In this document: one piece after another, positions 21,724-47,760 of the stretch | Position numbering within the stretch: position 1 is the stretch's first letter | Layout: every line of letters begins with the position of its first letter | Origin: Sedimentisphaerales bacterium | GTDB lineage: Bacteria > Planctomycetota > Phycisphaerae > Sedimentisphaerales > Anaerobacaceae | Direction: 5' to 3' | Assembly: GCA_963708075.1 (NCBI GenBank) | Contig: OY970194.1 | Span: 2,240,001 to 2,304,000 of the forward strand | Length of the DNA: 64,000 nt | Notes under the pieces: model-generated | Databases searched by the model: none | What the model was told of the DNA's origin: nothing | Seen by the model: the letters and a program-made list of their open reading frames with translations, nothing else | Made by a program: the position numbers and the translations under genes

Positions 21724-22296
21724 CTCTCTATTCCTTTCTATTGTCGGAAATCAAGCGTCTAATGCTGATGATACGTCATAGGGCCCACAGACTTGGATAC
21801 CTATCGGCTGTTTCAATTGTACTTGGACGAACAGGTGGCGGCAATGGGAGTCTCCACTTCCTTTCCGGTTGCCTTCTCAAGCCTGCATCGGGGGGAGGAT
21901 CATACTTCGGTCTCGGGAGCTTTCCTGTCACGACGGTGACGGTGCGGAGGGGAATTCCGGGCGCTTTACGTTTCCTGGTCTTGAATTGAGGATGGCGTCC
22001 CAGCTATAGCAGGCGGTGCACAAATGGTTCGAAAAACGCACGATTCGCGCCACGGTTTAGAATGAAAAACGGCTGTTAAGTAGAAAAACTTTACTCCCGC
22101 CGGCACAAGGACTTACGTCAATTCGCCTGTCGCCGGCGCACAGAATTTTCGACCGATTCGCGCATCTCGGAGCATATATGGAGGGACGCGTTATTTCCCT
22201 CCGGCGGGCGGCGCATCGAGCCCGGCGCGGATCGGCCGGGAGCGGACCGATGCGTGGACGGCCCGCCAGCGTCAACCCGTGTTGGCAGGTACACGC

Positions 22297-22944
22297 ATGA
22301 GCGACCGCATGTTTCGCGTCCAAGTCTTCCTCGAAACCCATTTCGCCCCCCTCCTGCTCCTGTGTCGTCGGCTGCTCGTCGGCTACCCCTACCGCAAGAT
22401 CCCGCTGACGCAGGGCAAGTTCGCCCTCGTGGATCCGGAGGACTATGCCGCGCTCGCCCACCACAAGTGGTGTGCCGCCAGACAGGGCAACAGCTTCTAC
22501 GCCGTGCGCAGCGAGGGCGGCCGCCAGCTCCGCATGCATCGCGTGATCATGAATGCCCCCGCTGATAGGGTCGTCGACCACATCGACCACCAGGGCCTCA
22601 ACAACACCAAGCGCAACCTGCGCCCCTGCAACAAAGCCCAGAACGCGCACGATCAGCGCCCCCAGCAGGGCCGCTCATCCAAGTTCAAAGGAGTCTGCTG
22701 GAACAAGCGAGAGCAAAAGTGGTACTCGCGAATCCAGTACAACGGCCGCCCGCGCTCCCTCGGCCTGTTCGCCAACGAGCGTGACGCCGCCCGCGCCCTC
22801 CACGGCGAATATGCCTTCCTGAATCTCCCCCCCAAACCCTCCCTCCTGGCCGCTCTCAAACGAATCCTGACCCGCGGCCGATTCACGCCAACACGCACGG
22901 GTCCTCAACCACGCGTAACCAAGGTTGTGCCCAAGGATTCGTAG
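22297..22944 (+). CDS. HNH endonuclease with C-terminal AP2 DNA-binding domain
   Basis: IPLTQGKFALVD, MHRVI, VVDHID..GLNN...NLR, SSKFKGV.W...W..RI...LGLF. Confidence 0.85.
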   Translation: MSDRMFRVQVFLETHFAPLLLLCRRLLVGYPYRKIPLTQGKFALVDPEDYAALAHHKWCAARQGNSFYAVRSEGGRQLRMHRVIMNAPADRVVDHIDHQGLNNTKRNLRPCNKAQNAHDQRPQQGRSSKFKGVCWNKREQKWYSRIQYNGRPRSLGLFANERDAARALHGEYAFLNLPPKPSLLAALKRILTRGRFTPTRTGPQPRVTKVVPKDS

Positions 22945-40324: not shown

Positions 40325-40498
40325 CTACTCCGCATTCCGCAATTCGAACTCCGCAATTACCCTCCGCCAGCCCGACGTATGATCTAAGCGATTTCTCGCA
40401 CCGCCTCGATACTGTCGCGTACTAGGCTCCAAGAACTAAGTATAGTGAATAGGTGGGCAATGCCCACACATGGATCGGCAGATAGGAAAGGATGGGGT

Positions 40499-41110
40499 AT
40501 GAAGGCGTTGCGAAGTACACCTTGGGTGCATGTTCTCGTAATTACGCTGGTCCTGGGGGTGGTCGCGACAACCGGCGGCGTGAGGCCGGCCGCGATGGAG
40601 CCGCTGGCGGCGATCCCCGGGGGGGTTACTGATGGCACGCCGGCGGTCGAGTCGTTCTTCGATATCTTCCTGGAAATCGAAGGCGTGGAGGGTGAGTCCA
40701 CAGTTCTGGGTCACGGGGGGGCCATTGAAGTCCTCTCCTGGAGCTGGGGAGTCTCACAGATGTCCACCGGGGGCGGCGGTGGTGGCGGCGTGACGGCTGC
40801 CCGAGAGAAGACCGGCCATGTAACACTCATCAAGCGGATCGACAAGGCTACGCCGTTGCTGTTCAAACGCTGCGTCGATGGCACGCACATCCCTCGCGCC
40901 GTGGTTCATCTGACTCGCGAGGACGGCCAAACCTACCTGAAGTATGAGTTGAAGGAAGTGATGGTCAGTTCCATCATGCACGGGGGCGACCTGGATGGCG
41001 ACGGATGCCCGGATGAAACGCTCGAGCTGACGCTGGGTGGGACCAAGCTCACCCACACACAGTTCGACGCCACAGGCAAGCCGGTCGGCCAAACTTCGGC
41101 CGAGTGGTGA
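40499..41110 (+). CDS. Hcp (T6SS tube)-family protein with N-terminal signal-like extension
   Basis: IFLEIEGVEGES....IEVLSWSWGV, KRIDKATPLL, YLKYELKEVMVSS, P.E.L.L. Confidence 0.85.
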   Translation: MKALRSTPWVHVLVITLVLGVVATTGGVRPAAMEPLAAIPGGVTDGTPAVESFFDIFLEIEGVEGESTVLGHGGAIEVLSWSWGVSQMSTGGGGGGGVTAAREKTGHVTLIKRIDKATPLLFKRCVDGTHIPRAVVHLTREDGQTYLKYELKEVMVSSIMHGGDLDGDGCPDETLELTLGGTKLTHTQFDATGKPVGQTSAEW

Positions 41111-44223: not shown

Positions 44224-46056
44224 TCAATGACGCAGCCTGACGTCCATTTCGACGGCGTGTTCCATACAGTACGCGCGGATCCTTTCGATCATGACGCGGC
44301 CGTACTGCTCGCATTTCGTCTCGCCGACGCCTCTTACATCAAGGAAACGGTCGAGCGTCGAAGGCCGGCGGCGCGCCATGTCGCGCAGCGCCGCATCGCC
44401 GAAGACCACGTAGGCGGGCACGCCCCGCTCGCGTGCCAGCGTAGACCGCAACGTGCGCAGAGTCTCGAACAGACCCTTGTCCACGCCCTCCCAGGATTCG
44501 GCGCTCGCCTTCGCGGTGCGCTGCCGCTCAGGCTTGCGCGCGGGCTGCAGCAGCCGCGGCGTTACTTCGCCTTTGAGCACGCGATAGCCTTCCGGCGTAA
44601 CGCACAGGACGTTGTACTCGCCGGTCTTTTCGACGAAGCCCTGCCCGGTGAGTTGCTCGATCCAGTCGTGCACGATCCGTTTGTCGTGCTCGCCGAGTAG
44701 CCCGTGGGTGCTCAGGGTATCGTGCCGGTTCTCGAGGATGCGCTGGTCTTGCGAGCCGGTCAGGACCAGGGCAGTATAGGCGCCGCCGAAACGCTGGCCC
44801 AGGCGCAGGATGCAGGAGAGGATTTTCTGGGCGGTAACCAGGGCGTCATCGATGGAGTCCACGTGCCCCAGGCAGATGTCGCAGCCGCCGCAATCGGGCT
44901 GCTTGTACGGCTGGCCGAAGTATCCGAGGATCGCCCGGCGGCGGCAGACTCCTTCCGTGCAGTAGCCGTACATCCGCGTGAGCTTGGCCAAAGCGATTTC
45001 CTTGGCTTGCGGCTCCATGTCGCCCAGCAGGGTCTTCCACACGGCGTAATCACCGCCGGAGTAGAACAGGCAGCATTCAGCCTCCAGCCCATCGCGCCCG
45101 GCCCGCCCGCTCTCCTGCTGGTAGTGCTCCAGCGACTTGGGCATGCCGGCGTGAATCACGTAGCGAACGTTCGACTTATCGATCCCCATGCCGAAGGCAA
45201 TCGTGGCAACGATGGTGTCTACCTTTTCCGAGACGAAGTCATCCTGGCTCTTCTTTCGTGCTTCATCCGCCATGCCGGCGTGATAGGGCGCTGCGCGATA
45301 GCCGTGTGAGACGAGCGTGCTGCACATCTCCTCAACATCGCGGCGGCGGATGCAGTAGATGATGCCGGACTCACCCTTGTGTCGGTCCATAACCTCGCGG
45401 ACCTGCTTGACGATCCGGTCGCGCGGCTGGACCTTGTAGATCAGGTTCGGCCGGTCGAAGGAGCCGACGAGCATAGCGGGCTCTTTCAGCCGCAATTGCT
45501 CGGCGATGTCGAGGCGGACCTGCTCGGTCGCCGTGGCGGTATAGGTGCCGATGGTCACTTCCGGGAAGATTTTACGCAAGGACCCCAATTGCCGATACTC
45601 CGGCCGAAAGTCATGCCCCCACATGCTGATGCAATGCGCCTCGTCGATCGCGATAAACGACAGTTTCAGCGAGCGCAGCATCGAGCTGAACCCCTCGGAC
45701 ATGAGCCGCTCGGGGGATATATATAGGAGCTTGAGCTGCCCCTTGTGGAGGCGCTCCATGGCGCTATCCCGCTCCTCCGGACTCAGGGAGCTGTCGATTC
45801 GTGCCGCTGCCACGCCGCACTCCGTCAGCGCATCCACCTGGTCCTTCATCAGGGAAATCAGCGGAGAGACCACAACAGCCAGGCCGGGCGCGATCAGGGC
45901 CGGGACCTGAAAACACAGCGACTTGCCGCCGCCGGTCGGCAGGACCACAATGACATCCCGCCCGCCGCAGAGATGCTCCATGGCCTCTTTCTGCAGTGGC
46001 CGGAACTCTTTGTAGCCCCAGTATTGCTCTAACGCCTTCTTGAGCCGCTCAACCAA
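44224..46056 (-). CDS. recQ: ATP-dependent DNA helicase RecQ (likely TTG start at 46056)
   Basis: PTGGGKSLCFQ, DEAHCISMWGHDFRPEY, QESGRAGRDG, Zn cysteines, RQC and HRDC domains. Confidence 0.96.
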   Translation of the reverse strand: MVERLKKALEQYWGYKEFRPLQKEAMEHLCGGRDVIVVLPTGGGKSLCFQVPALIAPGLAVVVSPLISLMKDQVDALTECGVAAARIDSSLSPEERDSAMERLHKGQLKLLYISPERLMSEGFSSMLRSLKLSFIAIDEAHCISMWGHDFRPEYRQLGSLRKIFPEVTIGTYTATATEQVRLDIAEQLRLKEPAMLVGSFDRPNLIYKVQPRDRIVKQVREVMDRHKGESGIIYCIRRRDVEEMCSTLVSHGYRAAPYHAGMADEARKKSQDDFVSEKVDTIVATIAFGMGIDKSNVRYVIHAGMPKSLEHYQQESGRAGRDGLEAECCLFYSGGDYAVWKTLLGDMEPQAKEIALAKLTRMYGYCTEGVCRRRAILGYFGQPYKQPDCGGCDICLGHVDSIDDALVTAQKILSCILRLGQRFGGAYTALVLTGSQDQRILENRHDTLSTHGLLGEHDKRIVHDWIEQLTGQGFVEKTGEYNVLCVTPEGYRVLKGEVTPRLLQPARKPERQRTAKASAESWEGVDKGLFETLRTLRSTLARERGVPAYVVFGDAALRDMARRRPSTLDRFLDVRGVGETKCEQYGRVMIERIRAYCMEHAVEMDVRLRH

Positions 46057-46147
46057 ATCCGTCGCCTCTAAAACCAAGGGGGGTCCAAACGCCACGGTAT
46101 TATACACGACATCAATGCGCCAAGCCAGCCCACAGGCCCAGCGATCG

Positions 46148-46800
46148 TGGCTTTGTTTCGCACAACCGCCCATGCAGCCCCCTTCGGCCTCCCGCCTACC
46201 GCCTCCGGCCCGTTCCCCGCAAATTGGCTTTGTTTCGCACAATCGCTTATCCCCTCTCCGGCGGCCGCGTCAAGCGAAGCTTGGCGATGGTCGTCCCGAG
46301 ACACCTCAGATTGGCTTTGTTTCGCACAACCGCCCGTGCAGTCCGCTCCGGCCTCCAGGCTGTTCCCCGCGAATTGGCTTTGTTTTGCACGACAGGCCCT
46401 TCGCCATCTGGCAGGTGGGCTCTGCCCGCCATCTGTCCGGCAGGGCCAATTGGCTTTGTTTGGCGAGGCAGAGCGAGCGGCCCCGCTGGTCCCAGGTTGC
46501 CGGACGGAGTCCCGGCCCCCGAATTGGCTTTGTTTCGCATCATCGCACAAGCGAACATAACCCCTTTCCCACAAAGAACTTTCCGCTGATCCCGCCCACC
46601 GACGTTGGCTTTGTTTCACAGAATCACTCACCACAGTCTGCGTGGCAGCGGCAAGCGCATGCTTGCCGATGCCACCCGTCTTAGGACTCCTCAAATTGGC
46701 TTTGTTTTGCAGATTCAGTCATCCGCTCCCCGCCTTCAATCCGCACTCCGCATTCCGCACTCCCAGGCTCCGGCCCGTAATTGGCTTTGTTTTGCACAAC
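46148..46800. repeat. Nine-unit repeat-spacer array, consensus (AAT)TGGCTTTGTTT(C/T)GCAC, no cas genes
   Basis: Cores at 46148, 46225, 46312, 46375, 46451, 46525, 46606, 46697, 46782. Confidence 0.92.
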
Positions 46801-47299
46801 TTGGCCCCACCGGGGCGACTTGCACCTGACCGGTCATGGCAAGCCCTCCTGGAATTCACGATTTACGAATTGTGATTTACGATTTGAGCACGGCCGCTGG
46901 GCCTGCCTTTCCGGCGCGCCGGCGAATCGGCGAGACTTGGTCATCCGCCCATATAACAGGGACGCTCACGGCGTCGGATTGTTGCAGGGATTTCCGTCCA
47001 GAGATGAAAATGCTTACAAGCCTTTGTACCTCATGGACTTACGGCCCCGGATTTTTCGCGCATACCCCAAAGGTGGATGTAACCTCTTATGCCGCCACGA
47101 TTTACGCCGGGTGGCATCGCCAAGCGGAGCCGTTCATGGACCTTTGGCGCACCCAAGAGGATGAAAATGGTGTCGGTCGGCCAGATTTACGTAAGTCTCG
47201 GCCGGTGCGAGACTTGGCCAACTTCGCATCGCTTTTCACCTACTGTATTCTCAGAGGAGTCCTCGGAGCTTGCCGATGGCGTTGCCCCGACACGGGCGC

Positions 47300-47602
47300 G
47301 CGCCCTTGGAACAGGTGCCCGCTTCGCCGGTGCCGGCGGTTATGCCATGAGCCGTACGCCACTTGCAGCCACTGCATCGCCGCCGAGAGGTTCGCGTCGC
47401 CCGTCTTGACCAGAAGGTCGTAGTGGTTGCCCATGAGCACATAGGCAAAGACACGCAACTCGAACCGCTGCGAGCACCGGCCCAGCCGGTCGAGAAAGCC
47501 CTCGTAGTCGTGCTCATCGCGAAAGATCACTCGCCGCTCATTGCCGCGATTGAGCACGTGATAGAACGTATCCTCCTGATCGATGCGTAACGGTCGTGCC
47601 AT
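47300..47602 (-). pseudogene. Truncated Y1/HUH transposase (IS200/RAYT-like)
   Basis: MARPLRI...YHVLNRGN.R..IF, YVLMGNHYDL (HUH second His to Asp); homology ends after GHLFQGR, before the catalytic Tyr. Confidence 0.85.
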
Positions 47603-47675: not shown

Positions 47676-47760
47676 GGAGAAAAGGGGTCAGGCTTTGGAT
47701 GTAGGTGCCGACCCTATTCTTCCGCGCCAATACCTATGTCCAAAGCCTGACCCCTTCTCC
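47676..47760. repeat. Long inverted repeat (GGGGTCAGG...CCTGACCCC) next to the Y1 transposase
   Basis: AAGGGGTCAGGCTTTGGATGTAGGT ... ACCTATGTCCAAAGCCTGACCCCTT. Confidence 0.85.

Follow-up and report, generated by a model that had tools for sequence, protein, structure and literature searches.

The window analyzed here, a stretch of 64,000 nt from a Sedimentisphaerales genome (contig OY970194.1, positions 2,240,001–2,304,000), contains upstream of recQ a series of short direct repeats separated by spacers. What is this array, and what do its repeats do? The original prediction offered a guide or non-coding RNA system, a recombination-site array, or an iteron-like protein-binding scaffold. We find that the array belongs to a family of cassettes present in many copies, and that this copy has lost the family's unnamed gene, which carries a TerS motif. 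Its features, in window coordinates, are:

46145–46796, minus strand: array of nine repeats of the 18-nt motif A, presumably protein-binding, with eight mosaic spacers of 51–79 nt
46558–46582, minus strand: motif B, an IHF-like dyad in the third spacer from the leader, about 20 nt past the repeat; part of the A–B–A′ core described below
46642–46675, no strand assigned: REP hairpin of the GGGTGGCA family in a spacer type common to nine arrays (sequence comparison)

As predicted, nine direct copies of TGGCTTTGTTT start at positions 46148, 46225, 46312, 46375, 46451, 46525, 46606, 46697, and 46782, with periods of 77, 87, 63, 76, 74, 81, 91, and 85. The full repeat, motif A, spans about 18 nt, reads TGCGAAACAAAGCCAATT on the minus strand, and is asymmetric, not palindromic. 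The 15-nt repeat pattern yields 186 matches, and the reversed pattern yields 0, hence, a chance origin of the repeats is excluded. Contigs of the short-read run X1, possibly the source sample, are identical to the window over 46191–46530 and 46655–46831; a second short-read run contains a variant with unchanged spacer order across 46171–46410.

Units 1 and 3 are indeed related (88% alike across 50 nt), and the heptamer ATTCCGC is present in unit 8; of the two REP-containing units claimed, unit 7 holds a hairpin of the GGGTGGCA type, while unit 2 has only a degenerate relative. The whole 7.5-Mb genome contains 254 exact cores, and 319 hits with one mismatch allowed, 288 of these within 42 one-directional clusters of 2–13; arrays occupy 0.36% of the genome. 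Relatives in another array exist for 172 of 246 spacers, and all eight window spacers have such relatives, 71–88% identical. Hence, the array does contain REPs and heptamers from the stock of the genome's other mobile repeats, but it did not newly acquire them at this position. Both repeat types are enriched in arrays (24 of 537 copies of the REP core and 31 of 146 heptamer runs), with the majority found elsewhere.

A guide or CRISPR-like system is not supported by these spacers. The leader-proximal spacer is the most widely shared type, with one family seen in 13 of 28 gene-less arrays, which is the opposite of CRISPR growth; no match of the spacers to phage DNA was found, and Rfam gave nothing close to the gathering score. 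CRISPR arrays are defined by unique regular spacers, newest at the leader, and by a palindromic repeat of 23–47 nt, none of which is seen here, the spacers being shared, old, and irregular in length. The original prediction also named, as an objection to itself, a real repeat protein encoded by the region. This applies to the gene-bearing copies, where in seven of eight the reading frame continues across the array into a conserved tail, but not to the gene-less arrays, which are fully open equally often on either strand (5 of 29 on each), nor to the window copy, which stops after 33 codons. Despite the repeat–spacer look, a CRISPR-like guide array or a repeat-protein gene is therefore largely refuted, and we consider it extremely improbable.

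The immediate neighbors of the array are:

44224–46065, minus strand: recQ (Pfam DEAD, RQC, HRDC), start codon not fixed
47240–47602, minus strand: truncated RAYT-type Y1 transposase (Pfam), outside the cassette; similarity to paralogues stops near codon 101
47679–47759, no strand assigned: hairpin with 28-bp arms, from a repeat family that occurs in many places without an array (sequence comparison)

Both recQ and the Y1_Tnp fragment are situated where predicted, the latter scoring 27 bits against a cut-off of 80. The proposed tie of the transposase to the array looks incidental, however, since the 13 Y1 hits of the genome occur near just 3 of the 42 arrays. None of the recQ orthologues in 11 of 11 congeners has an array upstream; in eight of them the gene opposite is htpX-like, and in one a lone degenerate repeat occupies this position. 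The G+C content is 57.8% on the leader side vs. 60.9% (3 kb, leader counted in). No target duplication or uniform ends of the copies were found, and no neighbor gene family recurs beside the cassettes. A stand-alone gene of the Hcp family (Pfam T6SS_HCP) lies at 40445–41110 of the window, where no nearby secretion cluster is seen. One Y1 fragment, a REP arm, and a second B dyad beside the leader are common to three arrays; as all these parts are shared, the junction was apparently copied as a block:

Window 47103–47290; C1:481667–482232; C1:4445146–4446578: arrays sharing the Y1 junction

The Y1 neighborhood bears on the recombination-site suggestion, in which the array would be a NIME- or BIME-like mosaic repeat, i.e., a recombination platform spread in trans by a transposase (e.g., the neighboring Y1) with the gene as a passenger. 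NIME (dRS3/RS) likewise have an invariant short repeat and recurring families of 50–150-nt spacers, and are intergenic and dynamic (PMC1797815); the REP hairpins in the spacers and the break of synteny at recQ fit as well. dRS3, however, is a 20-bp inverted repeat to which neither a gene nor a promoter is linked, and NIME arrays are syntenic between strains (PMC1797815); motif A is asymmetric, unrelated to dRS3 in sequence, and follows one gene family across phyla. With Y1 near so few arrays, we regard such a platform as highly unlikely. REP/RAYT elements (REPIN, BIME) do not match either, as motif A is non-palindromic and Y1 is truncated.

The gene family is seen in the full form of the cassette. 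Generally, a cassette consists of a promoter, a gene, and a repeat array; it is 1–1.5 kb long, contains a single gene, and exists in multiple copies. A leader of about 250 bp, on the side opposite recQ, is common to 18 of the 42 arrays and is conserved in the window over 46835–47041. It comprises, in this order, the motif B dyad, TG(C/T/A)AAC-N16-CGTC, which we take to be a putative ECF-sigma promoter, and a ribosome-binding site:

47017–47041, minus strand: leader motif B (IHF-like dyad); similarity between copies starts about here (sequence comparison)
46961–46986, minus strand: putative ECF-sigma-type promoter TGCAAC-N16-CGTC, directed into the array
46736–46849, minus strand: ribosome-binding site, start codon (46837), and 33-codon stub, the remnant of a deleted gene (sequence comparison)

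In nine copies the gene is located between leader and array; eight are intact and read on through the array, and seven gene-bearing copies finish in the conserved tail. The leader-to-start stretch of the window copy matches that of the gene-bearing copies, and since its reading frame reaches a stop 33 codons after the start, the gene is deleted here, with the promoter and the start codon kept. A scan for sigma-70 promoters found none; a sigma-54 reading of the repeat was rejected by the spacing. The same ECF-type promoter precedes host genes at C1:2315710, 2408629, 2479057, 2815583, and 4195559, a regulon through which the sigma factor might be identified. At the far end of gene-bearing copies (L001, L002, L004, L005), a 60-nt stretch with a hairpin resembling the tRNA T-loop is conserved directly behind the stop codon.

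Searches of Pfam, NCBIfam, and PHROG with five of the nine gene copies gave no family match, and no TerS family among them; ESM Atlas contains unnamed clusters only. Related proteins come from Sedimentisphaerales and other Phycisphaerae, and the family as a whole, with members in Planctomycetota, Acidobacteriota, and Alphaproteobacteria, amounts to thousands of protein clusters (at E 0.001, 24,985; at 1e-10, 8,232), some of which share the N-terminus alone. The gene is under purifying selection, with dN/dS of 0.37 in the study genome (first 95 codons, eight copies) and 0.09 in genome G207 (20 of 26 copies). In G207, the array is upstream of the gene, with one copy of the repeat inside the gene; the near-identical gene copies of this genome (L163–L182) consist of a few alleles reshuffled as a mosaic, suggesting frequent gene conversion among copies.

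The proposed genome- and phylum-wide search for linked genes yields one such gene, with motif A beside it. Motif A is found downstream of the gene, in the sense orientation, at 60 of 79 related loci (79 of 80 GTDB loci being anchored), with 133 hits downstream in sense, 0 upstream in sense, and 13 downstream in antisense. The downstream copies occur in any frame and often beyond the stop codon, hence, motif A is a nucleic-acid signal. Among 80 genomes of the order, the gene is present in 12 of 15 with at least eight motifs vs. 7 of the 65 others, although kin are not independent. The motif itself occurs in 24 of 24 congeners, in 6 to 785 copies, and tracks one gene family across phyla.

A signal of this kind could act as RNA or as DNA. 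In the former case, the putative ECF promoter would yield stress-induced, many-sited transcripts, whose unpaired A-rich repeats titrate an RNA-binding protein. This fits the promoter retained by gene-less copies, the one-directional layout of all arrays of the study genome, and the A-rich repeats with hairpin-bearing spacers on their flanks; the co-orientation of host genes downstream of arrays (30 of 42, by crude gene calls) is also compatible with a transcriptional role. However, repeat orientation is mixed within clusters of at least four congeners, and motif A is antisense downstream in 13 loci; the motif may lie upstream, inside, or downstream of the gene, and about half of the arrays have no leader. 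Neither the window array (z +0.82) nor 19 core units of related loci (mean z −0.46, empty consensus) show a folding signal as RNA. We consider the RNA reading distinctly unlikely. On DNA, the array strands show no bias relative to replication (16 leading and 26 lagging, by our own count), and a KOPS-, Chi-, or Ter-like role was rejected on this ground.

The evidence favors instead the suggested protein-binding scaffold, now with a linked gene that may encode the binding protein; the binding itself we infer. The repeats are probably the DNA sites of the cassette protein, which is TerS-like; in one gene copy, its N-terminal domain is encoded at C1:2846309–2846863. Its residues 2–42 match phage proteins in a profile comparison with 98.7% (E 2.7e-16, 41 columns), and a second profile comparison gives 97.3% across 53 columns, with no likeness further on. 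Of ten proteins with the shared N-terminal motif that were scanned, five match TerS families. In viral contigs, 20 of the 42 genes following such proteins were scanned, and 9 of the 20 are TerL; full-length relatives are found near TerL in three viral contigs. At the cassettes themselves, TerL is absent next to the gene in all nine copies. Searches of PDB sequences with both alignments returned nothing.

The structure model is all-helical with a long antiparallel hairpin (pLDDT 86.5); its N-terminal part forms two helices joined by an STGP loop, with no match to a canonical HTH. A four-copy model scores 0.80, with the best control at 0.00, agreement between runs in 56% of contacts, and pLDDT 74; in the calibration, which differs from the four-copy job, the score mark was attained by 20 of the 30 solved pairs and by one of the 23 single chains. 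Each chain uses two different faces, head to tail, with residues 1–40 outside the interface; hence, the helical hairpin is predicted to oligomerize head to tail in a ring-like manner. The TerS plan comprises an N-terminal DNA-binding part, a helical-hairpin core, and a variable tail (PMC9611059), and the modeled layout of the cassette protein fits it. A fold search of PDB and BFVD at E 0.001 gave no match, which carries no weight against TerS; the best VIA Z was 8.0, to generic coiled coils, and no TerS is among the matches listed.

The arrangement of sites points in the same direction. In relatives, the core consists of A, about 20 nt, B, and A′ at 89–92 nt, B being presumably an IHF-like site. 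Among 19 A–B–A′ units drawn from 81 loci, CAA-N4-TTR is found between A and A′ in seven, six of these at one offset (shuffle mean 0.9, maximum 5), and the strict IHF consensus in one; the study genome has three HU/IHF genes. In genome G190, A–B–A′ units of about 90 nt have a sharp end after the last repeat. At 52 phage terS loci sharing the N-terminal motif alone, motif A gives 3 stray hits, and it is absent from the host terS/terL loci. Family genes of five prophage-like contigs (L093–L097) follow YqaJ and ERF recombinase genes, near DUF5681 and TerL; motif A precedes the gene start by about 30 nt in four of the five.

Phage packaging sites have comparable parts. In lambda cosB (R3-I1-R2-R1), two of the TerS repeats flank an IHF site (PMC4856287), and P22 pac is an asymmetric site inside terS (PMC7672466). 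The cassette likewise has a repeated, asymmetric site that lies within its gene or beside it, with an IHF-like site between two repeats, and its protein shares the N-terminal motif and the predicted helical-hairpin ring with phage TerS (PMC9611059). It differs from phage TerS in having no adjacent TerL, portal, or prophage, and no match to the HTH fold of solved TerS; unlike pac/cosB, it exists in dozens of chromosomal copies, mostly gene-less, with 2–13 sites and mosaic spacers. The best reading, by analogy, is that a cassette works like a pac/cosB site with its own TerS.

We propose, at slightly short of an even chance, that this is a selfish cassette of TerS plus sites, which profits by biasing a packaging motor of a GTA-like system or of a phage. 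Gene-bearing copies would supply a terminase-like ring protein that binds the 18-bp repeats; motif B, as an IHF site, would bend the DNA between them, as in lambda cosB; and the bound protein would steer a phage-type motor to begin packaging at the array, which thus would serve as a DNA address. The helper would be the host's GTA-like machine or an infecting phage. Packaged array-ended fragments would recombine at the repeats, which would explain the mosaic spacers and the new sites, while gene-less copies would be non-autonomous riders, similar to MITEs. Counted against this reading are the restriction of the TerS likeness to 41–53 columns and the retention of a promoter by gene-less copies, since a pure DNA site would have no use for one.

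The TerS likeness and the promoter fit equally well a terminase decoy or regulator, which poisons or titrates phage or GTA packaging or represses its own cassette, the arrays being an operator or sponge. In known TerS, the C-terminal tail binds TerL (PMC6854486, PMC9611059), and in the cassette protein this is the variable, repeat-coded stretch; packaging-blocking satellites are also on record (PMC11417361). However, a decoy has no need for 42 dispersed arrays, mostly gene-less, or for a 100-fold spread of copy number, and we deem it unlikely.

A possible helper for packaging is encoded in the study genome:

C1:6070072–6110250 (L204, L205, L219): TerL, TerS-like, ParB-like, and sigma-like genes, and a 12-kb portal–scaffold–capsid cluster

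This TerL, at C1:6.07 Mb (C1:6070072–6071658), is the only one found in the genome and stands alone among housekeeping genes; the 12-kb portal–scaffold–capsid cluster has a divergent sigma-like gene. TerL was found with PF17289, while phrog_2, PF03237, PF05876, and PF03354 gave none in the genome; PF05133 matched the portal/capsid, and PF04860 and PF05065 matched none. In the order, TerL is present in 76 of 81 genomes and the capsid in 68 of 81, nearly always once, at 51–84% identity. The packaging genes are thus conserved, single-copy, and outside a prophage, as expected of a GTA host module, and they form a candidate GTA, i.e., a domesticated phage module of the host order. As in GTAs of the RcGTA type, the host portal, scaffold, capsid, and TerL are single-copy and conserved among housekeeping genes; the cassette is not part of the module. 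Two points against the proposed packaging role are that the module carries a TerS-like gene of its own and that most genomes lacking arrays have the module as well.

The cassette may instead serve the host, i.e., the bacterium would use cassettes as packaging starts, so that GTA-like particles carry the adjoining variable islands. The lower G+C content on the leader side and the presence of the motif in all congeners are consistent with this; the missing syntenic conservation at recQ and the lack of arrays in most module-bearing genomes of the order argue against it, making a host-serving role quite improbable.

A link between cassette and module is seen in the promoters of several relatives. 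The leader profile of G190 (15 leaders) has the portal promoter as its best match in the study genome (E 4.5e-8) and matches 17 of 20 portal-upstream regions at E 0.01, the best E of the reversed control being 0.43. Conversely, the portal-promoter profile (14 promoters) matches directly upstream of the cassette gene at 16 of 20 G190 loci, a count with some circularity because the bounds were taken from the G190 profile, and at 10 of 81 other loci; it matches 0 of 20 G207 loci and no array leader of the study genome. The cassette promoter profile of the study genome fails to pick up the portal promoter (best E 2.1); the two share the −10 box and differ in the −35 box. The distance from B to CGTC is shared by both promoters, at 54–55 nt in five of five measured and 52–54 nt in 8 of 17. 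Judging by sequence, the cassette has a copy of the portal-operon promoter in several relatives, not in the study genome.

It is possible, although we lean against it, that these cassettes form a new class, a minimal one-gene genetic parasite of gene transfer agents. Such a parasite would switch on with the host's domesticated capsid operon, its small terminase would lend sequence specificity to a machine whose packing of DNA is random without it, and the chromosome would be seeded with tens to hundreds of gene-less address arrays. SaPI/PICI satellites use their own TerS to borrow the helper's TerL and capsid, and lateral transduction starts from integrated pac sites. The cassette would similarly combine an element-encoded specificity subunit with borrowed helper TerL and capsid; unlike SaPI/PICI (10–15 kb), it is about 1 kb long, has no integrase, att, replication, or repressor gene, exists in many copies per chromosome, and its helper may be a domesticated host module. 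By the features compared here, the cassette is outside the PICI, CRISPR, NIME, and REP families and, with no TerL beside it, appears not to be a phage TerS proper. Known GTA TerS are described as having no domain for specific DNA binding, and GTA sites are not known (PMC6854486, PMC11841831); hence, packaging could be biased by a sequence-specific TerS supplied in addition.

GTA particles are generally taken to be filled with host DNA regardless of its sequence. Such a system should be open to cheats, none of which were found described in the literature searched. The openly accessible papers searched contain no description of the cassette element, and no GTA described in Planctomycetota was found; PMC11266412 mentions neither phage nor terminase nor capsid. 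If cassettes do bias packaging, they would be cheats of a GTA, and their arrays would be the first packaging sites defined in any GTA-like system. Simple coverage profiles would then suffice to test particle-borne transfer, a role would be assigned to an unnamed protein family that ranks among the largest (8,232 clusters at E 1e-10), and the "hypothetical proteins" of sediment genomes that are encoded by such repeats would be explained as a class. Even without a packaging role, no element is described that combines multiple copies, an unnamed gene, a repeat of its own, and non-autonomous derivatives.

A further point against the packaging reading is that the gene also occurs without a host-type TerL, in four genomes of other lineages. 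Among five gene-bearing genomes outside the phylum sample, only two have a TerL domain, both homologous and beside a portal-like gene. Two Bryobacterales genomes (L223, L224) have a TerL (66%) and portal-like (78%) pair in common, and an equivalent packaging module in Acidobacteriota is possible from these sequences. Copies of the portal-operon promoter are also present at six HNH/AP2-like genes (window 22083–22944; C1:2151337, 3490796, 4227080, 4285610, and 6705427), which may be a second family hitch-hiking on the portal regulon.
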